The notes below the pieces were generated by a model. It did not search any database. It was not told the DNA's origin and worked only from the letters and a program-made list of their open reading frames with translations. A stretch of DNA of 64,000 nt. Source: Candidatus Nanoarchaeia archaeon (lineage in GTDB: Archaea > Nanobdellota > Nanobdellia > SCGC-AAA011-G17 > GW2011-AR17). Position numbers and translations under genes: made by a program. Of this stretch, positions 12,996 to 40,888 are shown one piece after another (position 1 is the stretch's first letter; every line of letters begins with the position of its first letter). The stretch is taken from contig JBAZYQ010000001.1 in assembly GCA_041659245.1 (NCBI GenBank), positions 4,912 to 68,911 on the forward strand. Reading direction: 5' to 3'.

Positions 12996-13871
12996 TTATT
13001 TTTTCATATCCGCTAAAAATCCAAAGAATAATATTTGGAGACCAGAAATTATTAATAATATGCATAAGACTGTACTTGGCAGATGCCCTACTTTGCCTGT
13101 TTTAAAGAATAGCATGGTAAGCCAAAGTCCAAGTAATAATCCTGTGATAATAAAACTGCCTCCAATGCTCCCAAAGAATTTAATGGGGTTATAATCCCTT
13201 TGCACTCTAAGGATATTTATCCATGCTTTAAATGCGTATCCGAATGGATTCTTTATTAATTTGCTTTTTCCTTCCCTGGCAGAAAAATAGGTTGGGATCT
13301 CTTTCACCTTGAAATCTTCCGTTACTGCCCTTAGTATTTGTTCTTGGGTATAAGTATGGTTTGATATAATATCTAAAGATGCAACTTTCCTGTTAAATGC
13401 TCTAAAACCAGTCTGGCAATCGTTAATTTTATATTTTAATATCTTGGATATGGCTCGGGAGAAAGCGCGATTTCCAATCTTTTTTAATAAAGGCATCTTT
13501 TCTATGCCTCCGGCAAACCTGTCTCCTAATACCAAATCATAGCCCTTCTCAACTTCGTGTATTAATCTTGGAATGTCTTTTGCCTGGTATTGCCCGTCTG
13601 CATCTGTATGCACAATAATATCTGCGCCCATCTTCAGGCTTTTTTTAATTTCAGTTCGAAATGCCTCAGCCAGTCCCCTATTAGTAAAATGCGAAAAAAC
13701 AAACGCTCCTGCTTGTTTAGCAAGACTTTCTGTTTGATCTGTGCTTCCGTCATTTACAACAAGAAGTTTATAATTATATCTCTCCTTAGCCATTACATCC
13801 TTTATGTCTTTAATCACATGACCTATTGTTTTTGCTTCATTGTATGCCGGGATGGTAATTACAACTTTCAT
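12996..13871 (-). CDS. GT2 polyprenol-phosphate sugar synthase (Dpm1/ArnC/GtrB-like) with C-terminal TM anchor
   Basis: VVITIPAYNEAKTIGHVI…LVVNDGSTDQT…HTDADGQ, then a C-terminal hydrophobic segment. Confidence 0.85.
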   Translation of the reverse strand: MKVVITIPAYNEAKTIGHVIKDIKDVMAKERYNYKLLVVNDGSTDQTESLAKQAGAFVFSHFTNRGLAEAFRTEIKKSLKMGADIIVHTDADGQYQAKDIPRLIHEVEKGYDLVLGDRFAGGIEKMPLLKKIGNRAFSRAISKILKYKINDCQTGFRAFNRKVASLDIISNHTYTQEQILRAVTEDFKVKEIPTYFSAREGKSKLIKNPFGYAFKAWINILRVQRDYNPIKFFGSIGGSFIITGLLLGLWLTMLFFKTGKVGHLPSTVLCILLIISGLQILFFGFLADMKK

Positions 13872-13894
13872 ATTAAATCATCATTTTTGGGGTT

Positions 13895-15064
13895 TTATAA
13901 ACCTTTTGCAGAGTACATCTTAAATTCCCCAATCTGTTTTATCAGGCTGAGATTAAGCATATGCTTGGTATAAATATAGTCAACATGTTCACTATAGCTT
14001 TCCAGATTGCCGACTATAATTTTATCATTAAGCCAAAAGCCAATTATACTATTTGTTCTATTCCCTATATCGCGTTCATATATGCCTGTTTGGTTCAATT
14101 TTGAGATAATAGCCTCATCACGTTCATCTAGCAGATATACGGAATATTGCGGATCATATTGATTCATAAACATGCCTATTTGTACTTGGGGTCCTGCTGC
14201 CCAATATACCCTGGTATTGTATATTGTTACTGAATAAGCCAACAGTGAGATTAGAATAAAGAAAATAATTGAAAAATAAAATATGCGCTTGGTATGAGGG
14301 TATATCATCTTGTATAGTATATAAAATATCAATCCCAATATGGCTGCAAAAATAATCTGTGATATGAAAGAGGAATTAAATACTAATCTTATTAGTTCGG
14401 CTAAAATTCCCAGCCAGGACAAGGATAAATTATTAACCGGAAACAAAGGAAATAAATATAAGACTGAAGAGCAAAGAAGTAATGATACGATAATGAAAAT
14501 AGATTTCATATTAATTTTTGTAGGCATCTTTTCAAAGGCAATTATTCCTATTATTATGATTAAAGGCAATACTGCTTCGATATACCTTCCTATAGGTCTG
14601 CCTAATAACCAATTAGAATAGATTCCAACTTGTGCAGCTGCATTATGATTTGAGGCAATAAGCAAGGTTACAAATATGCATAGACCTGAAATAACCAACA
14701 AATAAGGGTATTTAGCTTTTGCTTTCAGCAGATTTAAAAATCCAATGGAATAAATGAAACCAGAACTTATTATCAAATAGCCGAGAGATATTAAAAACCA
14801 AAGCAGAATTGTGCCTATTTTCAGTCCATGGCTTGTTTCAAGACTATAGTACCCTCCTGAAACTGAATTAATTGAAAATCCAAATAAAAGCCCGTTTCGT
14901 ATCAGCCATAAAACGATGAATGGGATGGCTGAGATAATAAATACAAATGTTTTTTTGGCATTTAATTTAAAATCTTTGTCTTCCCAGGCCTTAAACGTAT
15001 AAGCCCCAATACCTACAAAAAGCAAAGCAATGCCGCTTACTTTTGTTAAGTATGATAAGCCCAC
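13895..15064 (-). CDS. GT-C (PMT/ArnT-like) glycosyltransferase, C-terminal portion; likely one gene with 15106..15600 interrupted by a frameshift
   Basis: Polytopic membrane ORF with no ATG start (GTG in the track). Its frame stays open upstream to 15236, overlapping the end of the upstream ORF in another frame. Confidence 0.5.
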   Translation of the reverse strand: MGLSYLTKVSGIALLFVGIGAYTFKAWEDKDFKLNAKKTFVFIISAIPFIVLWLIRNGLLFGFSINSVSGGYYSLETSHGLKIGTILLWFLISLGYLIISSGFIYSIGFLNLLKAKAKYPYLLVISGLCIFVTLLIASNHNAAAQVGIYSNWLLGRPIGRYIEAVLPLIIIIGIIAFEKMPTKINMKSIFIIVSLLLCSSVLYLFPLFPVNNLSLSWLGILAELIRLVFNSSFISQIIFAAILGLIFYILYKMIYPHTKRIFYFSIIFFILISLLAYSVTIYNTRVYWAAGPQVQIGMFMNQYDPQYSVYLLDERDEAIISKLNQTGIYERDIGNRTNSIIGFWLNDKIIVGNLESYSEHVDYIYTKHMLNLSLIKQIGEFKMYSAKGL

Positions 15065-15105
15065 AGATAGCCCTGCAATAATCGGCCATTTGTATCCTTT
15101 TGAGG

Positions 15106-15600
15106 TTACTGCTTTGTAAATTGTAAAAACTGAAAAAGGAATAAAGGATAATATAGGCTTTCGCTCATTATAAAAGGGGCAAATGCTAGATTTGAAGGCA
15201 ATACTGATACAACAACAGCCGTAAGAAATGCTGATTTATCCTCAAGAAATTCTTTTGCAAGAAGCCATGCGGGAATTATTATTAGTGAAGATAATAGTGC
15301 ATTAAGAAATTTCATAAAAATGTAAACATATTGCATATCCTTAAATTTATATGAAATTGAGATTAGAATGGGGTAAAGCGGAGGAAATTGCGCAGAAGGC
15401 ACACCATGTTCTGTAAATTCCTGGTCAAAATAGAAGCTCCTTGCTATTTTTGCATATGAATCTTCATCGCTATATCCTGATATTGTGGGCACAAATGAGG
15501 AAAACACAACTTTTACAATAACCAATGCTAGAAAAATCAACAAAAGCCGTTTTGTATACATTTTCATTAGACTTAAATCAGTTATACTTTTTATAAACAT
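15106..15600 (-). CDS. GT-C (PMT/ArnT-like) glycosyltransferase, N-terminal portion
   Basis: TM1, then YSDEDSYAKIARSF: the DE/DxD first-loop motif of the PMT/ArnT/AglB GT-C families. Confidence 0.55.
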   Translation of the reverse strand: MFIKSITDLSLMKMYTKRLLLIFLALVIVKVVFSSFVPTISGYSDEDSYAKIARSFYFDQEFTEHGVPSAQFPPLYPILISISYKFKDMQYVYIFMKFLNALLSSLIIIPAWLLAKEFLEDKSAFLTAVVVSVLPSNLAFAPFIMSESLYYPLFLFQFLQFTKQ

Positions 15601-15666
15601 TATGAATTGCCTTAAACCTCCGGCATTATATTCTAATATGGATTATTAGAATGTAATAGAAAACAT

Positions 15667-16863: not shown

Positions 16864-16930
16864 AACTTAAAATTTATTTTGAGGGTATATAAATATAATG
16901 AATTTCTAAATTTAATTTATATAAAATTCC

Positions 16931-18139: not shown

Positions 18140-18216
18140 AATGAACTTTTTAAGGATATTTAAGGATTATGGTTCTATACTGTAGAATACAATTTTTGCA
18201 TATTTAATTTTCCCCT

Positions 18217-20923: not shown

Positions 20924-22435
20924 GTGCCTAATTGTATGACAGAGCAGGCAATACTGAATAAAATATCCAAAGGCGCAACTCTACTTTTAATAGGGATGGT
21001 TATTTCCAAGGTATTTTCATACATTTATAGGGTTATTATTGCCCGTTATTTGGGAGCAGATGTATATGGATTATTCAGTATTGGATTAGCGGTTATAGGC
21101 ATCTTAGTTAGTCTCTCACTTGTCGGGCTCCCTCAGGGAATATTGAGGTATGTATCTTATTATAGCGGGAAACGCGATGAAAAATCCATTCATGCAATAA
21201 TAAATAATGCTTTTAAGATTATAATCCCCCTCTCGCTATTATTTACATTGTTGCTTTTTATTTTTGCCAAATGGATTTCTCTTTATTTTTTCCATGACCC
21301 TTCCCTGGTTAACATGCTGAAATTAATGTCTTTTGCAATACCTCTTACTGTAATCGCAATAGGCATAGAATACTCATTCCAGGCATTTCAAAAAATAAAC
21401 TATATAGTTATAGCTAAAACTATTGTGGGACCTGTCTCAAAAGTAACAATTTCACTCATAGTACTAATTATGGGCTACAAGCTTATGGGCATAGCTTTTG
21501 CTTATATCTTCTCGCTATTTATTTCCGCTTTATTGATGGCATATTTTCTTAAAAAGATAGTTTCTTTTAGGAAAATAGCCTTAGCGCCGCCTATTTTTTA
21601 CAAGCAATTATTATATTTTTCACTTCCATTAATGTTTTCGGAATTATTTATTTCGCTTTTGACTTGGAGCGATACATTAATTTTAGGGTATTTTGTTCCT
21701 GCTGTACAAGTAGGTATATATAATGCTGCAGTACCTACTGCATATCTTATTTTTACAATACCCGTTGCATTAATAACTTTATTTATGCCAACAATAAGCG
21801 GTATGTATGCAAGGAAAGAGGATTTTAGCAATCTCTATGATACTATAAATAAATGGATGTTTTTGGTTGGTGTGCCTTCTGTGTTGGTTTTAGGATTATA
21901 TTCCAAACAGATACTTTCAATATTATTTGGTAAAATATTCGTTGAAGGCTATTTTGTATTAATTCTGATTGCAATAAGCTTCTTTATATATTCTCTCATG
22001 CTTACATCAGAATCAATACTTATTATAATGAAAAAGACAAAATTAATATTGTTCAATAGTTTTTTAACAGTTTTGCTAAATATTATTATGAACCTGTTGC
22101 TTATACCCAAATATGGGCTTATGGGGGCGGCAATTGCAACTGCTTCTGCATTTTTATTGACGAGTATTCTTGTTGCGATAGAAACATATTATCTCACAAA
22201 ATTGTTCCCGTTAAAATTAGGCTATATCAAGTGTATAATCTCTGCTGCTATACCTTTTACTCTTATAGTTTATCTTAATACTTACATAAATACCCATGTG
22301 CTATTTGGGCTCATCTTTTTGGCTTTAATATATCTTGTGTTGTATATAATACTATTAAGGCTTACACATGCTTTAGGCGCAGAGGAAATAAGTCTTATCA
22401 AAAGTGCATGGCAAAAGGTCAAGACTAAATTTTAA
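20924..22435 (+). CDS. Polysaccharide biosynthesis protein / oligosaccharide flippase (Wzx, MOP superfamily-like)
   Basis: ~12-14 TM, 503 aa; layout and N-terminal KGATLLLIGMVISKVFSYIYRVIIARYLG typical of Wzx-like flippases. Confidence 0.7.
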   Translation: MPNCMTEQAILNKISKGATLLLIGMVISKVFSYIYRVIIARYLGADVYGLFSIGLAVIGILVSLSLVGLPQGILRYVSYYSGKRDEKSIHAIINNAFKIIIPLSLLFTLLLFIFAKWISLYFFHDPSLVNMLKLMSFAIPLTVIAIGIEYSFQAFQKINYIVIAKTIVGPVSKVTISLIVLIMGYKLMGIAFAYIFSLFISALLMAYFLKKIVSFRKIALAPPIFYKQLLYFSLPLMFSELFISLLTWSDTLILGYFVPAVQVGIYNAAVPTAYLIFTIPVALITLFMPTISGMYARKEDFSNLYDTINKWMFLVGVPSVLVLGLYSKQILSILFGKIFVEGYFVLILIAISFFIYSLMLTSESILIIMKKTKLILFNSFLTVLLNIIMNLLLIPKYGLMGAAIATASAFLLTSILVAIETYYLTKLFPLKLGYIKCIISAAIPFTLIVYLNTYINTHVLFGLIFLALIYLVLYIILLRLTHALGAEEISLIKSAWQKVKTKF

Positions 22436-22487
22436 TGATTTAGGACAATATAGATATATTTTTAAATGCTTAGTCTTATTTAATTCT

Positions 22488-25975: not shown

Positions 25976-26367
25976 TTTGTTATGTCTACTCTGATTACAT
26001 CTTTTTCATACCCATTGTCTGTCCTTGAGAAGTCATGGAAATCTAGAAACTCAAAATCTTCCAAGGCAATTATCGTATGAATCACTTTTGGCGGTATGCT
26101 AATGAAATCCCCTTCTTTTATTATGTTCTTTTCTGTTTTTGCATTGGGATCTTCCGAATCCTTGCTTAGGAATTCAGCTTTTCCTTTTAATACATAATTG
26201 AACTGTTTCGCCTTGTTGTGGTAATGGTTTCCCCTTACAGCTCCTTTTTTTGAGGTTATCAGCCCAATATGCAATATATTTTCATCATCCAGAATATCAT
26301 GGATAGCTCCGCGCTGGTCTTCAAATGCCGGTTTTATATGCTTTATGCTTATTTTTTTGTTTTCCAT
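25972..26367 (-). CDS. Cupin-fold sugar 3,4-ketoisomerase-like protein (FdtA/WxcM C-terminal domain-like)
   Basis: 131-aa cupin with RGNHYH…VIHTI His-rich metal/active-site motifs. Stop overlaps the aminotransferase start by 4 bp. Confidence 0.55.
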   Translation of the reverse strand: MENKKISIKHIKPAFEDQRGAIHDILDDENILHIGLITSKKGAVRGNHYHNKAKQFNYVLKGKAEFLSKDSEDPNAKTEKNIIKEGDFISIPPKVIHTIIALEDFEFLDFHDFSRTDNGYEKDVIRVDITK

Positions 26368-26371
26368 AGTT

Positions 26372-28462: not shown

Positions 28463-28471
28463 TTAAATAGA

Positions 28472-29191
28472 TTATTTATTTGGTCTGAATCTTAATCTTA
28501 TGATTGTTGTCCCTAAATTCCATGCATGCCCTATAAGGGTTTTAAATGAGTCTGCTGTCTTGGTTTCACCGAGAACTCTGTCATAGGTAATGTAAGGGAT
28601 ATCTTTTATCTTGAATCCCATTTTATAAGCTTCATATAGGAACTGTATGCAATATTCTGCATAATTGCCTTTTAAGTTTATATGTTTGAATACGTCCTTT
28701 TTTACTGCAACAAATCCGGTTGTATAATCTGTAATCTTGGGTGTGAGCAGCAGCATTGCAAATTGATTTATTGCCCAGCTGTATGCAATTCTTGGTATTG
28801 TTCTTGTATCTTTTCCGCCTTTAATATATCTTGATGCAGCGGCAATATCATATCCTTCATTAATTATTACGTTCAAGAGTTTAGGTAATAAATGAGGCGG
28901 ATGAGATAAATCGCAATCCATCCAGACAACTATTTCGCCTTTGGCTTCGTGTATGCCCCTTTGAATTGCGGTTACAAGCCCCCTTTCCTTGGTTCTTTTA
29001 ATAACGCGCACATTTGGTTTGTCGAGCTTCTCAACCGTTCTTGCTGTACCGTCAGGGGAATTATCATCAACAACTATTATCTCAAAAGGTAGTTTTACGT
29101 AATGTTCTATTTCTTTTATAACCAGGGGTACATTTTCGGTTTCATTGTAAGTGGGCAAAATAACAGAAACTTTAATTTGTTTGGGATTCAT
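28472..29191 (-). CDS. GT2 polyprenol-phosphate sugar synthase (Dpm1/ArnC/GtrB-like)
   Basis: VSVILPTYNETENV…IVVDDNSPDGT…DCDLSH. Confidence 0.85.
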   Translation of the reverse strand: MNPKQIKVSVILPTYNETENVPLVIKEIEHYVKLPFEIIVVDDNSPDGTARTVEKLDKPNVRVIKRTKERGLVTAIQRGIHEAKGEIVVWMDCDLSHPPHLLPKLLNVIINEGYDIAAASRYIKGGKDTRTIPRIAYSWAINQFAMLLLTPKITDYTTGFVAVKKDVFKHINLKGNYAEYCIQFLYEAYKMGFKIKDIPYITYDRVLGETKTADSFKTLIGHAWNLGTTIIRLRFRPNK

Positions 29192-29344: not shown

Positions 29345-30832
29345 TTAAGCCGTTGTCAGAAGACAGGTGTCATTTCGTTTTCCTTTGGCTTTAAGCCCAC
29401 ATTTTTGCAGATTAGTACAAGATTCCTTATAGCTTACTATCTCTGTTACATTCAGTTTTTTAAGAACATTTAATAAACCGGTGCAATTGTTATTGTTAAA
29501 TGTGTCTGCTGCAGCAACAAGTAATTCTTGCTTTTCAATAGATACTTCATGGGTTGTCCAACCATTGGCAGTTGAAAGATTTAAGTAAATTGCGCCATAA
29601 GAATAGAATGCTCTTAAATAAGCATCTTTTGGCGGAACACCCAAGAATAAGTAAGTACCTTTAATTTGAGGCAATAATAGCATTATATCTTTAGCCAAAG
29701 GGCTATTTTCTTTGAAATAGGGAGTATGAATATGGGATAATGTAACACTTACAACAGGGAAGATTATTAAAATACCTAAAATGCCATACTTCATTAATCT
29801 ATTGATTCTATTTACGTCTATATTGAATAGGAAATAAATAATGCACATCAAAAATAGTAATAGGAATGAGTCGACATAAACTTGGTTTAAATAAGGAATA
29901 AATATCACTAGTTTTGTTATAAGCAAAACTGCCATTAAAATTACAGGCAGGAAAAAAAACTTAGTTTTATAGTTTTGTTCAGTTGATTTCCAGTATATGT
30001 AAAAGAGGAATATTAATGCAATAGATATAATAACGGCAGCTATGTTTGTCCATGCCCATTCGCTTCTAAAACTTAATGACTCACTAGTTAATGCATACTC
30101 GTATATCGTACTTTGGCTATAATCTTTCAAAAAAGGATACCACCAAAACGATGTTAATATTACTGTTATAATCGAGGATATTAATATTTTTATCTTTTCT
30201 TTGCTTATGAGAACAAAAGAAGCGAGCATGATGCCCGCCAATAATGTTTCCTGGGGGTGAGATAATATCATTATTGCAAATATAGGGATAAATAAGAGAT
30301 AGAATTTATTATCTATTTTGTGGTTTATGTACCATAAAATAATGCCTAAAAATGGAATAAAAAATACCCATGCGAAAAAATGCGGATAAGAACCAAGCCT
30401 TATAAAATTGCCTATACTTATCGGGTTTCCAAAGAATAATGCAAAAAAAGCAATTCTTTTAATTATGCTCCATTGCAGATATTTTCCGATTATGGCTATA
30501 AATATGGCAGATAAGAGATATAATACTATCATTGAAATATAAGATGCAATCTGTACATTTTTTGTAATCCAATATAATGGCAATGTAAAGAAAAACCAGC
30601 CAGGTGAATAAAACTTAAGCACTACTAGTCCCCCATACCATTCCGGAGCAATATTATGGAATCCATATTTAGCTAAAAAATGCAGCAATGTCATAAAACA
30701 ACTTGCATCATTAGCATAATCAAAAGGGAAAATAGTCATTATCTTTGCTTGGTCTATTAACCTGAAGATAATATAACTTATTAAAATTATAATAATCGGA
30801 TAAAAATATTTATCTTCAATGGTTTTTGGCAT
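29345..30832 (-). CDS. Polytopic membrane protein, GT-C-like glycosyltransferase candidate
   Basis: ~13 TM. Acidic first-loop motif FDYANDASCFMTLLHF, analogous to the DxDS motifs of AglB and the 15106..15600 fragment. Cys-rich C-terminal extracytoplasmic tail. Confidence 0.5.
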   Translation of the reverse strand: MPKTIEDKYFYPIIIILISYIIFRLIDQAKIMTIFPFDYANDASCFMTLLHFLAKYGFHNIAPEWYGGLVVLKFYSPGWFFFTLPLYWITKNVQIASYISMIVLYLLSAIFIAIIGKYLQWSIIKRIAFFALFFGNPISIGNFIRLGSYPHFFAWVFFIPFLGIILWYINHKIDNKFYLLFIPIFAIMILSHPQETLLAGIMLASFVLISKEKIKILISSIITVILTSFWWYPFLKDYSQSTIYEYALTSESLSFRSEWAWTNIAAVIISIALIFLFYIYWKSTEQNYKTKFFFLPVILMAVLLITKLVIFIPYLNQVYVDSFLLLFLMCIIYFLFNIDVNRINRLMKYGILGILIIFPVVSVTLSHIHTPYFKENSPLAKDIMLLLPQIKGTYLFLGVPPKDAYLRAFYSYGAIYLNLSTANGWTTHEVSIEKQELLVAAADTFNNNNCTGLLNVLKKLNVTEIVSYKESCTNLQKCGLKAKGKRNDTCLLTTA

Positions 30833-30956: not shown

Positions 30957-33668
30957 TTAACGCTTAATCTTATCTATTTCAGGATCAGGTAGTTCATCTT
31001 TATAGTATTCCGGCGGTATCTTTAGACCTTCGGGATAATCTACTTTCCATATCTTTGTAGGTCCTATAAGCCTTCCTTGGTATAAAGCAAGAGGCATTCC
31101 CGTATTCTCATCTGAATAAGCCAGTTTTATGTAAGGCCAGTCTTGGTTAAGCAGGTAAAGCTTTGCAAACAAGCCTTTATACACTTCAGGCGAGAGATAT
31201 AAGGCTGCACCCAAGGGGTTAGCTTGTCCATTGGATTCGATTGTAGGGATTATCCTTAAGCATCCTTCGAGCATATCTTTGCCTGGGAATATATATTCTT
31301 GCCCATTCAGGTAAACACATTTTAATGGCACTTTTATTTGCTGTGCATTATATACGATAACTGCTTCAGGCTGCATAATCTTCTGAGCTATTTTTGTTCC
31401 ATTTGCATCTTTAACTTCAATATTCTGTATAGGCAGAAATACTCCTGCAACTCCTGCGGCATTAGCAGGAAAGAGTTTTCCCTGATAAATAAAGTCATCA
31501 TCCAGCGGCGTTCCGCCTGCAAACAAGTATACTATTTCTTCTCTTGTTTCCCTTATCTGGTCAGGCTGCATAACCATCGTTGAAATCCATGAATATCGGT
31601 CATAATTCCTGTCTGCACCTATCGATGAATAAGCAGGATATTTGCCTATTTCATCACTGATTATAAGCAAGTATGAAACATTTTTTGATTTCATAAATTC
31701 CAATGCTTCTGTCTCATTTTGCCCAGTAAGGATATGTCTTCCAACAAAGTAGTTTATTGCTCCAAAAGCATTTCCTCCATCGCTTATAGTGGCTCTATTG
31801 GCACCCCATTGAACCCAATAGCCATAATCCCACCAATGAGCAAAGACAGCATCTTCAGGAGTGTTATCTTTAGCCCATGACATGGCATTTTGCCATTGCT
31901 GGTTAAAGCTGGGGCCCACATAGCTTGCTTGGGCGCTTACATTTTTATAAAATCCCCAGAATGTTAATCCCACCACTAAAGCAATTAAAATAAATGCAGT
32001 TATCTTATATGCCTCTTTTTTGAGCTTTTTGGCCCGTTCAAATAATTCAATAGCGCAATATCCTGCAAGAACTGCCGTTACAGGCGCAAAAATGAACAGC
32101 AGTCTTATTGCGCTTCTTGCTGCAATTATCATGATTATAAACCAGATAATCATTAAGGGAATCATTATATCTATATTTAAAACGCTTTCATTGGCTTCTT
32201 TGTTTTTGTAAATATATTTTATATATCCATATCCTAATATGCCAAAGAAAACAATCAGTGAACCAATATAAACTATCTGGGATATTGGTGTTTCACCATT
32301 GAATGTTGATGAAGCGGAGTATCTGCTCATGCTGAATAGCAGTATGAATAATGCAAATGCGCCGGTAAGTATCCAAATATTCTTTTTTTGAATGGTCTTA
32401 ATCTTGCTTATTAAAACATAAAACATCAATATGGCGCCTGCAAAAAACAGCCACATATACAATGGTCCGAAAAAAGCTTCAAGGCTGCTGCCGCTTGAGA
32501 ACTGTCCTATCCAATCTGTAAAATAAGGCTGATGATTTTCTGCAACTGTCACCTGCCATCTGCTTGTTGCGAATGGGCTGGTTATTTGTTCATATACTTC
32601 GCGAAAAACATTTTCAATTACAGTATGCCCTTCTGTCAATAATAAGAAACCTACCCCTAACCCTATAGTTATAAGTAAAGCAAAGAATCCTAGTGGCATT
32701 TTAGCTTCAACTTTTTTTGTGAATGTGCTTAGTTTATTAACATTTAATATTATCCAGACTAATGATACCAAGAAGCCTATTAACATAACTTGAGATGTTA
32801 AGGAATTAGTAAAAGCGATAAAAGGGAATCTTGCCGGATAAAATAAATGTGCAAAAAGTATTAGCAATATCATCCAGATTGTATAGGCATAGAACTGATG
32901 CCTTTTGAATATACCCACCAGATTGCAAATTATGGTATGTACGCCTAAAGCTAGCATTATAAATATGTATCCACCCCATACGGCTGCTAATAGCCCTGAT
33001 AATATTCCTGCTAACGCTGCAAAAGGTATAAATTTTTGTGGTTTTTCTTCTTTTAATGCTGATACATAAAAATAAAGCGCTGCAAACATCAATGCAACAG
33101 CAAGGGCTTCCTTATCTGCCACTCCTGCCATTGTCCTGTAAAGGAATGCAGGCACTACTACAAGGAATGCTGTTGATATGATGGCAACCTTATGGTTAAA
33201 CATCTTTTTTACAAACAAGAAGAAAAATATTGCTGCTATGAAAAATGAGATTACAGGGTATAATATGGCTGCGTTAACCGTTGTTGCGTTTGGATTGAAT
33301 ATTTGCAGTATTTTTTGCAGATATGCAATGCAATTGGATAATATTCCAAATTCCCCCCGTGGATCAAAGCCAAAAGGATAATAACGTAATATATCATTTG
33401 CCATAATCTTGCCATGCACTGCAATATATTCTGCATATCTCAGAAAAGCATAGCTGTCAACATCAGGAAGCCATTTCCCTTGTAATAATGGCAGATTAAG
33501 AGTTCTTATGTAATATCCTAACCAAGCTATAATTACCATAATAATATAGATAATCCAATCTTTTTTTTGTTTAAATCTGCCTAAAAAGGCATCTTTTCTT
33601 TCTTGAAGCTCTTTTGTTATAGAATCAGAAGTACTTTGGGGTTCTTCTTTTAAGTCATAGTCTGTCAT
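30957..33668 (-). CDS. aglB: Archaeal oligosaccharyltransferase AglB (STT3 family)
   Basis: Signature WWDYGYW motif (AHWWDYGYWVQ). First-loop DVDSYAFLRY DxD motif. 13 TM plus a large C-terminal domain; 903 aa. Confidence 0.92.
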   Translation of the reverse strand: MTDYDLKEEPQSTSDSITKELQERKDAFLGRFKQKKDWIIYIIMVIIAWLGYYIRTLNLPLLQGKWLPDVDSYAFLRYAEYIAVHGKIMANDILRYYPFGFDPRGEFGILSNCIAYLQKILQIFNPNATTVNAAILYPVISFFIAAIFFFLFVKKMFNHKVAIISTAFLVVVPAFLYRTMAGVADKEALAVALMFAALYFYVSALKEEKPQKFIPFAALAGILSGLLAAVWGGYIFIMLALGVHTIICNLVGIFKRHQFYAYTIWMILLILFAHLFYPARFPFIAFTNSLTSQVMLIGFLVSLVWIILNVNKLSTFTKKVEAKMPLGFFALLITIGLGVGFLLLTEGHTVIENVFREVYEQITSPFATSRWQVTVAENHQPYFTDWIGQFSSGSSLEAFFGPLYMWLFFAGAILMFYVLISKIKTIQKKNIWILTGAFALFILLFSMSRYSASSTFNGETPISQIVYIGSLIVFFGILGYGYIKYIYKNKEANESVLNIDIMIPLMIIWFIIMIIAARSAIRLLFIFAPVTAVLAGYCAIELFERAKKLKKEAYKITAFILIALVVGLTFWGFYKNVSAQASYVGPSFNQQWQNAMSWAKDNTPEDAVFAHWWDYGYWVQWGANRATISDGGNAFGAINYFVGRHILTGQNETEALEFMKSKNVSYLLIISDEIGKYPAYSSIGADRNYDRYSWISTMVMQPDQIRETREEIVYLFAGGTPLDDDFIYQGKLFPANAAGVAGVFLPIQNIEVKDANGTKIAQKIMQPEAVIVYNAQQIKVPLKCVYLNGQEYIFPGKDMLEGCLRIIPTIESNGQANPLGAALYLSPEVYKGLFAKLYLLNQDWPYIKLAYSDENTGMPLALYQGRLIGPTKIWKVDYPEGLKIPPEYYKDELPDPEIDKIKR

Positions 33669-34554: not shown

Positions 34555-36090
34555 ATGAAAATAGTATTAATCTCAACTTCAACTTATCCTTCTGACCAGG
34601 GACTGCGGACAATCTCCTCATGTCTTAAGAGGGAAGGCTATGATGTTAAGATGGTTTTCATGCCAATGGCGGAGGATTATTCACTTGAATATTCAAAATC
34701 AGTTCTTGGACAGCTTAAAGAAATATGCAAGGATGCAAGGCTGATTGGGATTTCTGCTTATGCTTCAACTTCAGTAAGGGCTGAACAGCTTATAAATTAT
34801 TTAAAACAGCTTAATGTGCCTATTGTATGGGGCGGGCCTCATGCAACAATTTCTCCTGATATGTGCATAAAGCAGTGCGATATTGTCTGCAGGGGCGAGG
34901 GTGAATATGCAATGCTTGAGCTTGCAAAGAGGGTGAAAGAAGGCAAGGATTATTCTGATGTTCCAAACCTGTGGGTTAGGAAAGGCGATGAAATAATCAA
35001 GAATGAAATAAGCAATATGCCTGACTGCCTTGACTGCTTTGCTCCTCCGGACTATGACTTGGAAGACCATTACCTGCTTGAAGGAAACAAGCTTGTTCCA
35101 TTCAGGGAAAAGCACCTTAACGGCATGATATTCTTCATGACAACAAGGGGCTGCCCGAATGCGTGCGCCTACTGCTGCAATCATCTTTACAGGCAATTGT
35201 ATCACGGGCACGGCAAATTATTAAGAAGTTACAGCATAGATTATGTAATCAAAGAGCTTCAAAGGCTAAGGGACAAATTTCCTTCGGTTGGCGTATTTGA
35301 CATTCGCGATGAAACATTTTTTGCAAGGCCGCTTTCAGAAATAAAGGAATTTGCAGAAAGATACCAAAAAGAAGTAGGTGTAAGGTGGAAGTGCCTTGCA
35401 GATCCAACAACGATGAGCGAGGAAAAGCTTCAGCTGCTTGTTGACGCAGGGCTTACTGACATAATCATCGGAATACAGTCAGGTTCTGACAGGATAAACC
35501 TGGAGATTTATAAGAGATTCATCAAGAGAGAGCAGGTTTTGAAGGCTGCAAAGATTGCAAATAAGTTTAAGGGAAAGCTCGCAGTGATGTATGACATAAT
35601 AACAACAAATCCTTATGAGAATCCTGAGGATGTTTTGGATTCAATAAACCTGCTGCGCGAGATACCAAAGCCATATTTCCTGTCTGTGAATAATCTTGTT
35701 TTCTTTCTTGGAACTCCACTTTATGAAAAGGCAATTGCAGACGGCATTATAAAATCAAAAAAAGACTCTGCCTCTCATTTGAATTATTGGGACAGGTGGA
35801 ACCACATAAAACTGAAGAAGAAGAATGCCTACCTTAATCTCATATTAAATCTGATGAGGGGGCCTGTCACAGACAAGAGATATGGGATAATACCTGCTCC
35901 TTTGCTGAATAAGCTGATATCCAAGAAAGCAGTTGATTATAACCTGAAGCATAATATTCCTACATATACTGCAGGGCAGTTTGTGCAGGCTGGGGATTAT
36001 TTCAGGGAGCACGTTGCAAAGCCGCTTTACAGGAACATGCTTCCGACTTCTGTCAAGGTATGGTATGATAAGGTTAGATATAGGGTATAG
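34555..36090 (+). CDS. Cobalamin-binding (class B) radical SAM enzyme, subfamily 1
   Basis: MKIVLISTST…LIGISAYAS…VWGGPH B12-binding-like N-terminus; TRGCPNACAYCCNH CxxxCxxC. Shares KEGKDYS / NLWV / CCNHLYRQLY blocks with 7345..8793. Confidence 0.85.
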   Translation: MKIVLISTSTYPSDQGLRTISSCLKREGYDVKMVFMPMAEDYSLEYSKSVLGQLKEICKDARLIGISAYASTSVRAEQLINYLKQLNVPIVWGGPHATISPDMCIKQCDIVCRGEGEYAMLELAKRVKEGKDYSDVPNLWVRKGDEIIKNEISNMPDCLDCFAPPDYDLEDHYLLEGNKLVPFREKHLNGMIFFMTTRGCPNACAYCCNHLYRQLYHGHGKLLRSYSIDYVIKELQRLRDKFPSVGVFDIRDETFFARPLSEIKEFAERYQKEVGVRWKCLADPTTMSEEKLQLLVDAGLTDIIIGIQSGSDRINLEIYKRFIKREQVLKAAKIANKFKGKLAVMYDIITTNPYENPEDVLDSINLLREIPKPYFLSVNNLVFFLGTPLYEKAIADGIIKSKKDSASHLNYWDRWNHIKLKKKNAYLNLILNLMRGPVTDKRYGIIPAPLLNKLISKKAVDYNLKHNIPTYTAGQFVQAGDYFREHVAKPLYRNMLPTSVKVWYDKVRYRV

Positions 36091-36099
36091 TTTTATTCT

Positions 36100-36750: not shown

Positions 36751-36876
36751 CTTATTATTTGAGTTGAGTATCTTTAAATGCTTTTCGTGGATATGTACAT
36801 CTACTTAAACCCGATTTAAGTTCTGTGTTGCTTAATGACAAATATTTATAAATCGTAGACATCTCCCTTTTAGGGT

Positions 36877-38691
36877 ATGGACATAGAATCCCATGAAGAT
36901 AAAGGTGTAATCTCATCTTGCAAGCAAGGCAATGCTTTTTCAGAAATCAAAAAAGACAAGCTTTTGCTTTCCCTATTTTTAATCCTAATCCTACTGGGCA
37001 TAGCTGTAAGATTTGTTTATCCTACCGAACCCGGACTTTGGAATGATGATATGAGTACTGTTCCAACTGCTGTAATGTGGTTTTATCCTCATGATTATTA
37101 TCCTGGTTTATCTGCTCAGGGTGAGCCTGCTTTAAGTAATTATATCATCGGAAAATCCTGTATGCTTTCCGGACAAGATTTCTCTAATGTTTCTAAAATC
37201 AATCCAGTCTGGTTTCCGGATAGAGCTGTTTTACTGGGCAAGGCTATGTCTTTATCAGAAGATTATTGCAGGATTCCGATGTATATCTTTGGTTTATTAT
37301 TCTTAATAGTTATAACTATCTTAAGTTTTATGCTACTTGACAAATATTCTGCATTATATACTATCTCCTTTTTTTCGTTTTATCCTTCTGTATTGCAACT
37401 TAGCAGGTGGATACGCGGAGATATAATCTTATACACTTTTTTAGTTCTAGGGTTAATATTTCTTTGGAAGTTTTATATTTCTCCTAAATATTCTAAACGT
37501 GAGATTGTCTTTTTCATTATATCGATGGCTTGGTTTGCACTATCCTTGGGCACCAAACTGCCTGCTGCAGTCTATGCTTTATTTGCTTTTTTAGTCATGC
37601 TGGAAAAATACAAGGAAGTTATTTTTTTAGGAATAGAAAAGGCAAAAGGCTGGTTGGGGCTGACTTTTAAAACTAATTTCGGAAGCAACGAAAAGCCTCG
37701 TCCGTTTAGAGTTTTTGTTTTAGCAGTTTCTTCCTTAGTTGCTTATATTCTGATGCTGCTTCCCCCCTATGAATTTGATTTGAAAAACATATGGCTCGTA
37801 ATTCAAATGTACAGGCGTACTGCCGGTTCCATGGGGGAATTTACACTTAATCTGGATATAGGGTCTACTTTTTATGAATTTGTTCTTAATATAAATGTTA
37901 TTGATATTTTTCTCTTGCTCGGGGCGATATATATATTTATAGCCTTATTGTTAAAAACCAAGGACAAGAATGAAAAATTTATATTTATGCTGATATTGCT
38001 TTTTATCTTTATGTCTATGATTTTTCCGACAATATCCCTACTCAGGATTTTTACGAGTTTTGCATTCGGATTGATATTTTTGATGTCTCTTGTGTTGTCT
38101 TCTAAGCATTATTCTTTGTCAGGAATTTTAAAATTAAACAGCAAAACTACTAGGAGATTATACTTAATTATACTGGTTATATACATTTTTATCTCGGCAT
38201 ATATAACTTTTTCTTCTTCGCCATACTTTTTGCATCAAAATAGCATTATCTGTGCAATTACGGATTGCGTTCCTTTAGGATATGGGGATTATGCCGGGTC
38301 ACAAGCAGGGGAATATGCGAGTAATCTTCTTAAAAATAATAGTGAAGATACCTTTGAGATACTTGAACGAAATCAGCTGATATATTATTATGCTATGTCT
38401 GAACAACATTACTTAGCATGGGCATTTAGAGAATCATTTAAACAGCAAACAGGAAGGGCACGTAATATACAAAATATACTCACTTATTATCATCCCTATA
38501 ATCGGACTGTAAGATATTTATTTATAGATCCGAATTATAATTATCCTAGCGAATATGGCTATCCTGATGAATCTAGAGATTATATTGAAGCATTAAAATT
38601 AGATTATATACCTAATGACAAAATAGTATTAAAACATGGTTTTGAAGCATTTTGGGTATATGATTTAAAGAATTTGCAAAAAAGAATATAA
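36877..38691 (+). CDS. Polytopic membrane protein, GT-C-like glycosyltransferase candidate
   Basis: 604 aa, many TM helices. Acidic first-loop motif after TM1 (WNDDMSTVPTAVMWFY). Hydrophilic C-terminal domain. Confidence 0.5.
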   Translation: MDIESHEDKGVISSCKQGNAFSEIKKDKLLLSLFLILILLGIAVRFVYPTEPGLWNDDMSTVPTAVMWFYPHDYYPGLSAQGEPALSNYIIGKSCMLSGQDFSNVSKINPVWFPDRAVLLGKAMSLSEDYCRIPMYIFGLLFLIVITILSFMLLDKYSALYTISFFSFYPSVLQLSRWIRGDIILYTFLVLGLIFLWKFYISPKYSKREIVFFIISMAWFALSLGTKLPAAVYALFAFLVMLEKYKEVIFLGIEKAKGWLGLTFKTNFGSNEKPRPFRVFVLAVSSLVAYILMLLPPYEFDLKNIWLVIQMYRRTAGSMGEFTLNLDIGSTFYEFVLNINVIDIFLLLGAIYIFIALLLKTKDKNEKFIFMLILLFIFMSMIFPTISLLRIFTSFAFGLIFLMSLVLSSKHYSLSGILKLNSKTTRRLYLIILVIYIFISAYITFSSSPYFLHQNSIICAITDCVPLGYGDYAGSQAGEYASNLLKNNSEDTFEILERNQLIYYYAMSEQHYLAWAFRESFKQQTGRARNIQNILTYYHPYNRTVRYLFIDPNYNYPSEYGYPDESRDYIEALKLDYIPNDKIVLKHGFEAFWVYDLKNLQKRI

Positions 38692-38738
38692 CACTTATCT
38701 CCAATAAATTAATATTTAAAAATATATCTTAAGCATAT

Positions 38739-40154
38739 TCACTTTAATATAAACTTAATAAAGCCCATTCCGCTGTTCAATACTTTCTTTCTAATCTTCG
38801 GATGCTTTAGTTTCCCCAGATATTTCACTATAATCCTTGGTCTTATATAAAATGCCATCCATGCCCTTTTATAATATTTCTCAAGCTCTTCCTTTGTAAG
38901 CCCGTGCGGCACGAAATTATCTGCATTAAACATATTTGTTTTTTTCCAATCCTTATCAAATGTTCCATATTTATCTGCCAAATTATATGCGGCTGCTCCG
39001 GGGAGAGGCGTGAAACAGGTAATATGGAAATCAGTAAGCGGGATTTTTCTTATAAATCTCAGCGTTTCTTCAATTGTTTCCTTTGTTTCACCGAAATTAC
39101 CCAGCATAAAGAGCCCCTTGACATCCATTCCTGCCTTCCTTGCCATTTTTATTGCTTCTTCAATTTGTTCTTTTTTTACTCCTTTGTTAAGTATATCAAG
39201 AATCTTTTGTGAGCCGCTTTCACACCCAAAGTTTATCTGCCAGCATCCTGCTTTATTCATTAGCTTTAGCAGTTCCGCATCAATAGTGTCCACGCGCCCC
39301 AGGCATGACCATGTTATATCAATCTTTTCGTTGATTATCCTTTCGCATATCTCTTTTAACCTTTTTTTGAACAGTAAAAAATTATCATCTTCAATGAAAA
39401 GCTCTTTGATACCATAATCCTGCTGCAATTTTTTAATCATTCTGATTACATAATCTGCGCTATAACATCGACATAAGTTTCCAAAAACACTCCTGTCGCA
39501 AAATATGCACTGCCCTGTGCATCCTCTTGAAGTGATAAGCAATGTTGCGGGATACCTGTGCATTGTATCTGCAGCGGGCTGGTAGTATTTAACAAGATTA
39601 GGCAGCATATCCCATGCGGGAAATGGTAGCCTATCCAAATCCATAATCGGCTTTCTTTTGCCTGTGAATATAATCTTGTCTTTTTCACGAATTATGAGCC
39701 CCTGGATTTTGTCGATACTTTTTCCTTCATCAAGAGTATCAAGCAGTTCCAGGATTGTATCTTCAGCTTCCCCTACCACGCCTATTTCAAAGACAGGGAA
39801 TATATTCATTGTTTGTTCAGGCACTGCAGTTATATGCGGTCCGCCAAGAATTATCCTTATTTTAGAATTAGCTTTATGCACTCCTTCTGCAACTTCTGCT
39901 GCAGTATAAACAGACATTGTTGTGGAAGTGATTCCCAGATAATCCGGTTTTTCCGCTATAATTGCATCTATTGTTTCTTTAATTGTCATTTTTAGGGCAA
40001 GGGCATCAATTATTTTTGTGTTATACCCCTTATCTTTTGTAACTGCCGCAAGAATAGCGAGTCCCAAAGGTGGTAGTTCGCTTCCTGCATCTCCCAACTC
40101 GTTATATAATTCGCTTAAGTTTTGAGGCGGATTAAGAAAAACTATTTTGCTCAT
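38739..40154 (-). CDS. Cobalamin-binding (class B) radical SAM enzyme, subfamily 2
   Basis: B12-binding-like N-terminus (PPLGLAILAAV…YLGITSTT…ILGGPH); SRGCTGQCIFCDRS CxxxCxxC. Start overlaps the stop of 40151..40888 by 4 bp. Confidence 0.85.
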   Translation of the reverse strand: MSKIVFLNPPQNLSELYNELGDAGSELPPLGLAILAAVTKDKGYNTKIIDALALKMTIKETIDAIIAEKPDYLGITSTTMSVYTAAEVAEGVHKANSKIRIILGGPHITAVPEQTMNIFPVFEIGVVGEAEDTILELLDTLDEGKSIDKIQGLIIREKDKIIFTGKRKPIMDLDRLPFPAWDMLPNLVKYYQPAADTMHRYPATLLITSRGCTGQCIFCDRSVFGNLCRCYSADYVIRMIKKLQQDYGIKELFIEDDNFLLFKKRLKEICERIINEKIDITWSCLGRVDTIDAELLKLMNKAGCWQINFGCESGSQKILDILNKGVKKEQIEEAIKMARKAGMDVKGLFMLGNFGETKETIEETLRFIRKIPLTDFHITCFTPLPGAAAYNLADKYGTFDKDWKKTNMFNADNFVPHGLTKEELEKYYKRAWMAFYIRPRIIVKYLGKLKHPKIRKKVLNSGMGFIKFILK

Positions 40155-40888
40155 TCTTTTACCCCTCTTATTCTTCGCCAGGTAAATTTCATTAAAGTTT
40201 TCATTGCCTTTATTATTTCCTGTCTTGATATTTTTGAAACGCCGACTCTTCTGTCTTCGAAGATTATCGGTATCTCACCAATCTTAAAATTATTTACTTG
40301 ACATTTATACATCATTTCCAGAAGAAATGAATATCCATTTGAGTAAATATTATTGAGATTGATTGTGCTTAATACTTCTTTTTTGTAGCATCTGAATCCT
40401 GCTGTGCAATCATTGGCTTTAAGCCCAAGCAAAGTATGAGCTAGAAGATTTGTGCTGCGGCTTATTATCTTTCGTGATATCCCCCAATTTTTGGTGCCTC
40501 CGCCAGGCACATATCTTGAACCCACGCAGAGGTCACATGTTTCCATCTTTTTGAGCATACTTGGCAGATAGCTTGGCTTATGGGAAAAGTCAGCGTCCAT
40601 GGTAATGGCATAATCATACTCTTTTTCCAGAGCAAACCTGAATCCGGCGATATAAGCTGTGCCAAGCCCCATTTTACCAGGCCTTTCTATTATAAACAGA
40701 TTTTGTTTAAATTTTTCATACATGATTTTTTTTACAATTGCTGCCGTTCCATCTGGAGAATTATCATCAACAACTACTATATGTAGTCCTAAATTATTTT
40801 TTGAAGAAACATCATATATTTCTGTTATTAGCGTGCTTATATTTTCTTTTTCATTATATGTTGGAAGGATAATTATGGCTTTTTTCAT
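40151..40888 (-). CDS. GT2 polyprenol-phosphate sugar synthase (Dpm1/ArnC/GtrB-like)
   Basis: KAIIILPTYNEKENI…VVVDDNSPDGT…DADFSH. Confidence 0.85.
   Translation of the reverse strand: MKKAIIILPTYNEKENISTLITEIYDVSSKNNLGLHIVVVDDNSPDGTAAIVKKIMYEKFKQNLFIIERPGKMGLGTAYIAGFRFALEKEYDYAITMDADFSHKPSYLPSMLKKMETCDLCVGSRYVPGGGTKNWGISRKIISRSTNLLAHTLLGLKANDCTAGFRCYKKEVLSTINLNNIYSNGYSFLLEMMYKCQVNNFKIGEIPIIFEDRRVGVSKISRQEIIKAMKTLMKFTWRRIRGVKE

Follow-up and report, generated by a model that had tools for sequence, protein, structure and literature searches.

The window analysed here, a stretch of 64,000 nucleotides, comes from the MAG of a DPANN archaeon (Candidatus Nanoarchaeia) and contains a surface-sugar locus of about 50 kb, with four GT2 lipid-sugar synthases, four membrane transferases and AglB. 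We consider it reasonably probable that several three-component extracytoplasmic glycosylation modules are encoded in parallel in this locus, beside the AglB N-glycosylation machinery; the lipid-sugars made by the four synthases are most likely used outside the cell by the membrane transferases. Direct support comes from the folds predicted for two of the transferases (C and D), family memberships, motif conservation, predicted topology and a conserved gene neighbourhood, and the pairing of synthases with transferases is suggested by their proximity. Pathways for GDP-6-deoxyhexose, UDP-uronic acid, amino sugars and C-methyl sugars are also found in the locus. The genes concerned are the following.

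3098..3829, + strand: GT2 no. 1, polyprenyl-phosphate sugar synthase-like, 243 aa (Pfam Glycos_transf_2)
4414..7338, + strand: fusion protein, 974 aa (Pfam GtrA_DPMS_TM, 4.6e-19 in two stretches, Ribul_P_3_epim and His_Phos_1)
7345..8793, + strand: B12-binding radical SAM enzyme (Pfam B12-binding and Radical_SAM)
9449..11314, - strand: protein A, polytopic DUF6798 protein, 621 aa (DUF6798, 5.6e-16)
11437..12933, - strand: B12-binding radical SAM enzyme (Pfam), between protein A and GT2 12996, on the same strand
12996..13871, - strand: GT2 no. 2, 291 aa (NCBIfam AglJ, 3e-47, full length)
13895..15600, - strand: protein B, PMT_2/ArnT-type GT-C, 568 aa if intact (Pfam PMT_2 and PMT once repaired)
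20924..22435, + strand: Wzx/MOP-type flippase, 503 aa (Pfam Polysacc_synt, 1.3e-35)
28472..29191, - strand: GT2 no. 3, Dpm1-like, 239 aa, motif 'MDCDLSHPP' (PDB DPMS 5mlz, 1.5e-36, residues 5-213)
29345..30832, - strand: protein C, PTPS_related-like family, 495 aa (GT-C fold in the predicted structure)
30957..33668, - strand: AglB oligosaccharyltransferase, 903 aa (Pfam STT3, 4.3e-21, and STT3-PglB_core; NCBIfam archaeo_STT3, 8e-35)
36877..38691, + strand: protein D, GT-C-fold transferase by its predicted structure, 604 aa
38739..40154, - strand: B12-binding radical SAM enzyme (Pfam)
40151..40888, - strand: GT2 no. 4, Dpm1-like, 245 aa, motif 'MDADFSHKP' (PDB DPMS 5mlz, 2.7e-31, residues 3-234)

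All four GT2 genes were found where an earlier note on this DNA had placed them, and its description of their products as Dpm1-like polyprenol-phosphate-sugar synthases is borne out. Their closest solved relatives are P. furiosus DPMS (PfDPMS, 5mlz), ArnC and GtrB, with alignments that cover the entire catalytic domain, and the NCBIfam matches agree, with AglJ, dolichyl-phosphate hexose transferase, PpgS, ArnC and PgfS on top. For GT2 3098 the best PDB matches, all full-length, are ArnC 9hwj (1.5e-10, residues 5-209), GtrB 5ekp and DPMS 5mlz; its metal motif is a variant, 'THADLQ', where His replaces the first Asp of DxD. GT2 12996 matches DPMS (9.5e-16) and ArnC (1.9e-12) over residues 2-287, and combines the motif 'TDADGQY' with a pair of C-terminal TM helices, an ArnC/GtrB/AglJ architecture; TM helices are absent from the three other synthases. 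GT2s 28472 and 40151 have in common the motif MD[AC]D[LF]SH.P, which we take to be of DPM1 type in its MD[AC]D[LF]SH part. In NCBIfam the former matches a dolichyl-phosphate hexose transferase (5.4e-25), and the latter PpgS, ArnC and AglJ. The four proteins are mutually diverged (20-37% identity). Since all scores lie far under the NCBIfam equivalog cut-offs, neither the sugar nor even the lipid acceptor is fixed by these matches.

Among the transferases, protein B has a broken frame in the window, one T being lost from a run of six (minus strand, 15133-15137). Over 4.1 kb, the one difference in an independent assembly (L009) is T6 instead of T5, and the protein encoded there is intact, with 568 aa, and the same as our reconstruction. 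The open reading frames 13895-15064 and 15106-15600 were therefore rejected as separate genes. Repaired protein B scores above the Pfam gathering thresholds for PMT_2 (36.5 bits), in a match that crosses the junction (residues 73-231), and for PMT (31.5 bits).

Searches of PDB sequences with profiles of the A, C and D families gave no match, and the GT-C assignment of proteins C and D thus rests on predicted structures, in which both adopt the GT-C fold, as the earlier note had proposed. Protein C contains some 11 TM helices, and four cysteines are conserved in its C-terminal domain. Its top Foldseek match is DPY19, and its nearest structural neighbours are STT3/AglB and DPY19. The C family is restricted to DPANN; PF10131 is matched by 14 of 48 homologues, protein C itself being below detection for PF10131 and matching nothing in Pfam or NCBIfam. 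The model of protein D (pLDDT 86.7), which includes an external C-terminal domain of about 155 residues, has only GT-Cs among its top 21 structural matches, led by Pmt4, ALG12, Pmt2 and ArnT, all enzymes that use polyprenyl-monophosphate sugars. At the sequence level, D lies just 0.2 bits above the Pfam PMT gathering score, a MIR domain was not detected in it with Pfam, and its sole NCBIfam match, to an Agl23-type model, is weak (2.9e-5). Protein A, which ends in a soluble domain of about 130 residues, is probably a GT-C, judging from profile comparison: hhalign relates its family (1775 cluster representatives) to the C family with 78-80% probability, and its C-terminal 'NTPxD...R..D' segment aligns with AglB immediately ahead of WWDYG (W612-W-D-Y-G616). 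DUF6798 is matched by 61 of the 62 sequences of the A alignment, A included; in the literature it is mentioned in no paper, and neither PF10131 nor PF20604 has a published function.

The earlier note had also described an acidic, DxDS-like motif after the first TM helix of these proteins and of AglB. The four segments that it quoted are present, namely D69-V-D71-S-Y in loop 1 of AglB, D45-E-D47-S-Y in protein B (ORF 15106), N41-D42-A-S in protein C, where N41-D42 starts the first external helix, and N56-D57-D58-M-S in protein D. Their conservation exceeds chance: all 48 homologues of C have D42, and in 20 homologues of D, D57 is invariant and D58 at least 90% conserved. What the transferases share, however, is not DxDS but one Asp in the loop that follows TM1; the residue before it is N or D, usually N (N-D). 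In protein A, for which the note had quoted no segment, this Asp is part of N57-D58 ('YLVNDWY'), D58 being the sole invariant column among 62 family sequences; the loop-1 Asp is thus invariant in all three family alignments made (A, C and D). Its predicted location is outside the cell, as the note had assumed. By the positive-inside rule, applied to the AlphaFold helices, the N-terminus would be cytoplasmic and the first loop external: Lys and Arg make up 16/56 residues of the predicted inside loops of protein C against 6/105 outside, and 19/89 against 6/58 in protein D.

These features bear on whether the GT-C-fold proteins, A and C especially, might be polymerases, ligases or non-catalytic partners of AglB rather than monosaccharide transferases. 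We regard this as very unlikely, as the invariant Asp sits at the expected GT-C catalytic position and is retained in very diverged homologues, and active transferases head the list of structural neighbours, above PIG-U and GAB1.

Each GT2 gene had been described as the neighbour of a gene for a many-TM protein. Strict adjacency was observed for 12996 with 13895-15600 and for 28472 with 29345 (the GT2 gene lies 153 bp downstream of the protein C gene), but the other pairs are set apart: a B12-radical-SAM gene separates 40151 from 36877, the two being convergent, and 3098 lies 5.6 kb from 9449, again convergently. Other DPANN genomes also keep GT2 and GT-C genes near each other. In 29 species-representative DPANN loci containing a C homologue, a small GT2 gene was found within 7 kb in 27 and within 3 kb in 23, and within one to three genes in all three D-family loci examined, some such proximity being expected by chance because a glycan island is dense in glycosyltransferases. 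AglB, whose gene is directly upstream of that of protein C in the window, is the immediate neighbour of the C homologue in 15 of the 29 loci and no more than 7 kb away in 20. That this family adjoins AglB repeatedly across DPANN is new.

Some or all of the Dpm1-like GT2s could instead act within the main AglB pathway, adding a first hexose in the manner of AglJ that is then elongated, and the GT-Cs would use unrelated donors such as lipid-linked oligosaccharides. GT4 enzymes, Wzx and AglB do form a complete cytoplasmic assembly route in the locus, and the structural neighbours of protein C both act on proteins. AglJ is also the best NCBIfam match of GT2 12996, which could be the one to start the N-glycan on dolichyl phosphate and not feed a GT-C, and it is matched by 33 of the 36 GT2s neighbouring C homologues in other DPANN loci (ArnC by 28 of 36; E<=1e-8). 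AglJ is, however, a Dol-P-hexose synthase of the same subfamily, and the two roles are therefore not separable by sequence. Moreover, four diverged synthases exceed the needs of one initiation step and are equalled in number by the non-AglB GT-Cs, and protein D is nearest to enzymes using Dol-P-monosaccharides. We thus hold this explanation to be unlikely.

A logic of the ArnC/ArnT or GtrB/GtrC type, as put forward in the earlier note, remains the best reading, since loop 1 is predicted outside, the synthases are Dpm1/ArnC/GtrB-like and the GT2/GT-C neighbourhood is conserved. It needs amending, the DxDS motif being reduced to a single Asp, and 4414 not being a GT-C-like partner: it is polytopic, but by Pfam it joins two GtrA/DPMS-TM (flippase-type) domains to a ribulose-phosphate 3-epimerase-like and a histidine phosphatase domain. 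It is a candidate for the third, flippase component, and shares one + strand gene run with GT2 3098 and radical SAM gene 7345.

B12-radical-SAM genes recurrently sit between synthase and transferase, which is also new. Here the order is B, GT2, radical SAM, A; gene 38739, convergent with the gene of protein D, has a 4-bp overlap with the stop of GT2 40151, and the orthologous GT2/radical SAM pair follows a C-type GT-C in a related locus (L015). Such pairs might make modified glycolipid head groups rather than decorate proteins or glycans, the GT-Cs being functionally unrelated. Radical SAM chemistry on lipid-linked sugars has precedents in HpnI (a glycosyltransferase), HpnK and HpnJ, with their cyclitol ethers, and in archaeal Cds, with calditol (PMC13459092). 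Genes 11437 and 38739 each come immediately after a GT2 gene, 5 of 31 related loci likewise have GT2 and radical SAM genes side by side, and HpnJ is the top NCBIfam match of both 11437 and 38739 (2.7e-73, 247 bits, and 6.1e-64, 217 bits). These scores are nevertheless far under the 577-bit cut-off, with BchE nearly equal, and therefore reflect generic class-B radical SAM similarity, the only kind seen for 7345. With GT2s that resemble polyprenyl-phosphate synthases and not HpnI, and pairs that lie within GT-C operons, a glycolipid role appears highly improbable.

We infer the donor sugars, the acceptors, the flippase and all activities of the modules as follows. At the cytoplasmic face, each GT2 would load one nucleotide-sugar-derived sugar onto dolichyl (polyprenyl) phosphate. 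The lipid-phospho-sugars might be flipped by 4414, by Wzx 20924, also a possible flippase for lipid-linked glycans built by the locus, or by the synthases themselves. At the outer face, proteins A to D would take them as donors, catalysis depending on the conserved Asp of the first external loop. Acceptors may be AglB-installed N-glycans, Ser/Thr of surface proteins or other envelope glycoconjugates. Because the association of its family with AglB is conserved in DPANN genomes, protein C is the best candidate for an extracellular step modifying the N-glycan or its lipid-linked precursor.

Two Pfam families of uncharacterised membrane proteins, PF10131 (PTPS_related) and PF20604 (DUF6798), include C homologues and protein A, respectively. 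In eukaryotes, Dpm1 is paired with PMT, ALG3/9/12 and DPY19, which are Dol-P-Man-dependent lumenal GT-Cs. The best structural matches of D (Pmt4, ALG12, Pmt2) and C (DPY19) belong to these GT-Cs, and GT2s 28472 and 40151 match PfDPMS at 1e-31 to 1e-36; sequence identity is 7-15%. Bacterial three-component extracytoplasmic glycosylation systems, pentofuranose systems included, are a precedent (PMC11127046). GtrA/GtrB/GtrC, ArnC/ArnT and CsbB-GtcA-YfhO likewise cluster genes for a GT2 polyprenyl-phosphate sugar synthase and an external polytopic GT-C, and the small flippase-type membrane protein has its counterpart in the GtrA domain of 4414. Here, in contrast, the host is archaeal, with dolichyl phosphate therefore the presumed carrier, one set is replaced by four synthases and four GT-Cs, the single GtrA-type protein is fused to epimerase-like and phosphatase domains, radical SAM genes are interleaved, and most synthases lack TM helices. 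In Haloferax volcanii, the Dol-P-mannose synthase AglD and the PMT-like Dol-P-Man mannosyltransferase AglS, with AglR, add the last sugar of the N-glycan outside the cell, after transfer by AglB (PMC4973528). The protein C gene, adjoining aglB, has a similar context, but there are more modules here, D matches the Agl23-type model weakly, and C and A have no NCBIfam match. The kind of system is therefore already known; its members in this locus are uncharacterised, and their copy number is unusually high.

The stretch at ~500-53700 of the window is one large glycan locus of about 53 kb, with at least 45 genes by Pfam annotation of about 50 ORFs. We consider it fairly probable that it holds several three-component modules beside the AglB pathway. 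In such modules, Dpm1-like GT2s would make dolichyl-phosphate monosaccharides inside the cell, these would be flipped, with a GtrA fusion protein and Wzx as candidates, and the GT-C-type membrane proteins A to D would transfer the sugars outside via a conserved Asp in the loop after TM1 (loop 1). Besides the oligosaccharyltransferase AglB, the inventory comprises four other GT-Cs, four lipid-sugar synthases, six B12-binding radical SAM enzymes (rSAMs) and about six methyltransferases. The main features are the following.

3098 (+), GT2, candidate lipid-sugar synthase
4414-7338 (+), GtrA fusion protein
7345-8793 (+), B12-binding rSAM
9449-11314 (-), GT-C-type protein A
11437-12933 (-), B12-binding rSAM
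12996 (-), GT2, candidate lipid-sugar synthase
13895-15600 (-), GT-C-type protein B
19440-20867, B12-binding rSAM
22404-24011, B12-binding rSAM
28472 (-), GT2, candidate lipid-sugar synthase
29345-30832 (-), GT-C-type protein C
30957-33668 (-), AglB
34555-36090, B12-binding rSAM
36877-38691 (+), GT-C-type protein D
38739-40154 (-), B12-binding rSAM
40151 (-), GT2, candidate lipid-sugar synthase

Pfam also recognised nucleotide-sugar genes (GMD, several epimerases, UDP-Glc dehydrogenase, DegT aminotransferase, a sugar C-methyltransferase, cupin, SIS, NTP-transferase and GHMP kinase), assembly and transfer genes (GT4 and GT2 transferases and a Wzx flippase, with AglB), and, as methyltransferases, five of class I and one C-methyltransferase. 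AglB is matched by Pfam STT3 (76.3 bits) and STT3-PglB_core, and carries D69-V-D71 in loop 1 and W612-WDYG; exact-sequence look-ups of AglB and of a 164-aa fragment matched no record. Two proteins encoded in the window match, at 100% identity, proteins of a 'Candidatus Nanoarchaeia archaeon' MAG, which makes the organism a DPANN archaeon. The G+C content of the window is about 35%, rising to 0.50 because of a complete archaeal rRNA operon (16S, tRNA-Ala(TGC), 23S) at 54058-58853 (+), directly after the glycan locus.

Gene order was next compared with the earlier claim that each GT2 stands next to a GT-C protein. A plus-strand run (GT2 3098, a 203-aa unknown protein, the GtrA fusion, rSAM 7345 and a 2',5'-ligase-like gene) converges on a first minus-strand run, which reads GT4, B, GT2 12996, rSAM 11437 and A. 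A second minus-strand run reads methyltransferase, AglB, C, GT2 28472, methyltransferase, C-methyltransferase, cupin and DegT. D, on the plus strand, converges on rSAM 38739 and GT2 40151, the genes of which share a 4-bp overlap. Two GT2/GT-C pairs are thus strictly adjacent, but the others are separated by one gene or by 5.6 kb. Downstream of GT2 28472, at 24878-27607 (-), the DegT aminotransferase, an FdtA-like cupin and a two-domain sugar C-methyltransferase (Methyltransf_13/14) form a set suggestive of a C-methylated amino-deoxy sugar, and this set is also found near C homologues elsewhere, for example in the related locus L019.

The four GT2 genes were found at the positions that the earlier note gave, and its comparison with polyprenol-phosphate-sugar synthases was borne out: when each was searched against all PDB sequences, the best matches were DPMS, ArnC and GtrB. 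GT2 28472 and GT2 40151 matched PfDPMS (5mlz) at 1.5e-36 and 2.7e-31, respectively. GT2 12996 matched 5mlz at 9.5e-16 and aligned with ArnC over residues 2-287, two C-terminal TM helices included, and GT2 3098 matched ArnC at 1.5e-10 (residues 5-209), with GtrB and DPMS next. All four have a GT-A domain closest to DPMS/ArnC/GtrB, with the full domain and C-terminal interface helices. Their leading NCBIfam matches were AglJ, dolichyl-phosphate hexose transferase (DPhHxTase), PpgS, ArnC and PgfS, and none of the four reached an equivalog cut-off (AglJ 161 against 325, DPhHxTase 88 against 375). With scores so far under the cut-offs, sequence comparison establishes the subfamily, that of polyprenyl-phosphate glycosyltransferases (Dpm1/GtrB/ArnC/AglJ type), but no sugar specificity. 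The metal motifs are TDADGQ in 12996, MDCDLSHPP in 28472 and MDADFSHKP in 40151, the last two presumably like the eukaryotic DPM1 motif; DxD is intact in these three of the four, and GT2 3098 has the variant THADLQ, with His for the first Asp. Pairwise identity among the four is only 20-37%, so that they are old paralogues, presumably with differing specificities; the same figures rule out recent tandem duplication as the origin of the modules. An additional GT2 of 296 aa with C-terminal TM helices lies at 48025-48915 (+), 3.8 kb from an LPG_synthase_TM-family membrane protein (52745-53671, -), with a sugar-nucleotide/heptose-like set (NTP transferase, SIS, epimerase, HAD phosphatase) in between.

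Some of the four GT2s might instead start the N-glycan on Dol-P and not feed a GT-C. This applies especially to GT2 12996, which is AglJ-like. We regard this alternative as unlikely, and the supply of sugars to GT-Cs by the GT2s as the better reading.

Protein C has no Pfam or NCBIfam match. Apart from its own database copy, 49 homologues could be detected, and all of those with a named source are DPANN archaea. PF10131 (PTPS_related) was matched by 14 of 48 aligned homologues. AlphaFold, run on that alignment, gave a confident model (pLDDT 93.9, pTM 0.92), which predicts a polytopic GT-C fold, with an N-terminal TM module, a long helix-bearing loop 1 and a variable C-terminal module. A Foldseek search with this model ranked DPY19, STT3A/B and AglB first, and transporters appeared only at probability <0.1, which upholds the GT-C fold that the earlier note had proposed. 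D42, one of ten invariant columns among the 48 homologues (30-55% identity), directly precedes helix 43-56 in the model, and the C-terminal domain has four conserved Cys. C is so tightly linked to AglB, and so close in structure to STT3 and DPY19, which act on proteins, that it is the best candidate for an N-glycan-related step.

The model of D likewise predicts a GT-C fold. In its family (20 homologues) D57 is invariant and D58 is at least 90% conserved. The match of D to Pfam PMT is borderline (22.9 bits for a cut-off of 22.7), that to PMT_2 is below cut-off (19.6 for 26.1), and Pfam found no MIR domain; assignment of D to GT39 PMT was accordingly rejected. D would work like a PMT/ArnT-type enzyme, yet is not classed as GT39.

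Protein B appears in the window as two ORFs, 13895-15064 and 15106-15600, and their reading as two proteins was rejected. Adding one T to the T5 run at 15133-15137 (minus strand) gives a continuous GT-C-like sequence across the ORF junction. The repaired 568-aa protein matches PMT_2 PF13231 at 36.5 bits (cut-off 26.1; model 3-159/160, residues 73-231), spanning the frameshift site, and Pfam PMT at 31.5 bits (cut-off 22.7). L009 (Logan SRR18595301), assembled independently from another run, aligns over 4.1 kb without a mismatch and with one gap only, T6 for T5; it encodes exactly the reconstructed B, with the same Pfam matches. Since the repaired frame passes Pfam and the gene is intact in L009, B is one PMT_2/ArnT-type GT-C gene in two frames, the break in which may have arisen in assembly or may reflect a population (homopolymer, phase-type) variant. 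Its loop 1 carries D45-E-D47-S-Y-A, which we take to resemble the ArnT motif 'DExxYA'. The metagenome scan found no relatives of B, and as a single sequence it gave chance-level matches only against PDB sequences. D and B resemble PMT and ArnT. No meaningful match was given by hhalign for D with B or for A with D.

A is a DUF6798 protein, of a family with 1775 cluster representatives that no paper in our literature search mentioned. The only invariant column of the family (62 sequences, with a mean identity to the query of about 24%) is D58, in 'YLVNDWY'; for A the earlier note had quoted no motif. By hhalign, the A and C families match with a probability of 78-80% over TM3-7 and the C-terminal domain, and A matches AglB at 58% over 45 columns just upstream of WWDYG; family profiles of A, C and D matched nothing above chance level among PDB sequences. 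Two members of the A family are matched by EpsG. On these profile comparisons A is a probable GT-C. The public annotation of A (P0071) starts at M64 (558 aa), which cuts off TM1 and the loop bearing D58; the longer ORF likely has the true start, because homologues align from residue ~15. A or C might instead be a polymerase or a non-catalytic AglB partner; with an invariant loop-1 Asp in both families, we judge this very unlikely, and keep to transferases as the reading for both.

The earlier note had described an acidic DxDS-like motif shared by loop 1 of these proteins. All the motif strings that it quoted are present, but the common element is [N/D]-D and not DxDS; only AglB (DVDSY) and B (DEDSY) are alike beyond it. 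In the AlphaFold models of C and D, the conserved Asp immediately precedes the short helix with which the post-TM1 loop opens. Topology was predicted by taking the AlphaFold helices as TM segments and applying the positive-inside rule. For C, the loops predicted inside hold 16 K+R among 56 residues and those outside 6 among 105; for D the figures are 19 among 89 inside and 6 among 58 outside. By crude hydropathy the N-termini of A and B are also K/R-rich. With this inward bias, loop 1 is predicted on the outside, where the GT-C mechanism needs it, and the extracytoplasmic location proposed for the acidic motif is supported for C and D.

As a partner of GT2 3098, the gene at 4414 had been taken for a GT-C, which it is not. 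It encodes a 974-aa GtrA/epimerase-like/phosphatase fusion, with two N-terminal GtrA_DPMS_TM domains, a ribulose-phosphate-3-epimerase-like domain, a ~300-aa unassigned middle and a histidine phosphatase. Gtr systems have GtrA as their third, flippase-type component, so the fusion protein has a place in the proposed scheme, though not that of a GT-C. A GtrA-family component, as in Gtr-type three-component systems, is present, as one such protein for four synthases, together with Wzx. The genes upstream are 1559 (class II aldolase/AraD-like), 2226 (NTP-transferase-like), GT2 3098 and 3810 (the unknown 203-aa protein); with 4414, they may form a pentose- or phosphosugar-based pathway to a lipid-linked donor.

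We then asked how far the arrangement is conserved. In all three long contigs with a C homologue and all three with a D homologue, a small GT2 (229-321 aa) lies a few genes from the GT-C, often with B12-radical-SAM genes near. A scan with the C-family alignment, using one GTDB genome per species, gave 29 loci (L010-L038), all from Woesearchaeota, Nanoarchaeota or unclassified DPANN-type archaea. Their ORFs were annotated by phmmer with the window proteins as queries, and the following counts are raw frequencies, not enrichment over a genome-wide background.

AglB at most 7 kb from the C homologue: 20/29 loci
AglB directly adjacent to the C homologue: 15/29 loci, mostly AglB then C on one strand
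Small GT2 at most 7 kb from the C homologue: 27/29 loci
Small GT2 at most 3 kb from the C homologue: 23/29 loci
Small GT2 adjacent to the C homologue: 9/29 loci
B12-radical SAM gene near the C homologue: 15/29 loci

The AglB/C gene pair was not described in the literature found by searches on other points. At E<=1e-8, 33 of 36 neighbouring GT2s were matched by AglJ, 32 by PgfS and 28 by ArnC, which places them in the lipid-phosphate synthase subfamily. One of these loci (L015) has clear orthologues of GT2 40151 and rSAM 38739 (367 and 780 bits) directly after the C-type GT-C, on the same strand.

The six rSAMs of the window are 23-35% identical. Two are directly downstream of Dpm1-like GT2s (GT2 12996, then rSAM 11437, then A; GT2 40151, then rSAM 38739, convergent on D), a third, rSAM 7345, follows GT2 3098 at a distance, and up to four stand beside a C-type GT-C in related DPANN loci (L004, L016). 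The rSAMs might tailor the dolichyl-phosphate-bound sugar before GT-C transfer, by C-methylation or ring rearrangement of the kind proposed for HpnJ/Cds. This idea is quite unlikely as it stands; if true, the sugar that the GT-C brings to the cell surface would be radically modified, in a four-component variant of the three-component pathway, giving sugars that no nucleotide-sugar pathway supplies. Another conceivable product of the GT2-radical SAM pairs is modified glycolipids of the kind made by HpnI/HpnJ or Cds (PMC13459092). Likeness to HpnJ is weak (247 and 217 bits, under half of the 577 cut-off, with BchE nearly equal), so that specific HpnJ orthology is not supported, and we hold glycolipid synthesis to be highly improbable. 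A literature search for B12-radical SAM, glycosyltransferase, archaea and gene cluster found no paper combining all four. The recurrent linkage of rSAM and lipid-sugar-synthase genes is a testable lead.

The genomes of DPANN archaea are very small, and these archaea rely on contact with host cells; to our knowledge almost nothing is known of their surface glycans. For such a genome, the locus commits a very large share of genes to surface sugar chemistry, and the family of C (29345-type) may modify N-glycans after their transfer or may be a partner of AglB. The general mechanism is already known: it is textbook three-component logic, established in bacteria (PMC11127046), with AglD/AglS as an archaeal precedent (PMC4973528). 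Relative to these systems, the new elements are four uncharacterised GT-C members within one DPANN locus, an uncharacterised family, that of C, as a conserved AglB neighbour in Woesearchaeota and Nanoarchaeota, the tentative placing of DUF6798 in the GT-C superfamily, with a candidate catalytic Asp, and the recurrence of B12-radical-SAM genes in synthase/transferase modules.
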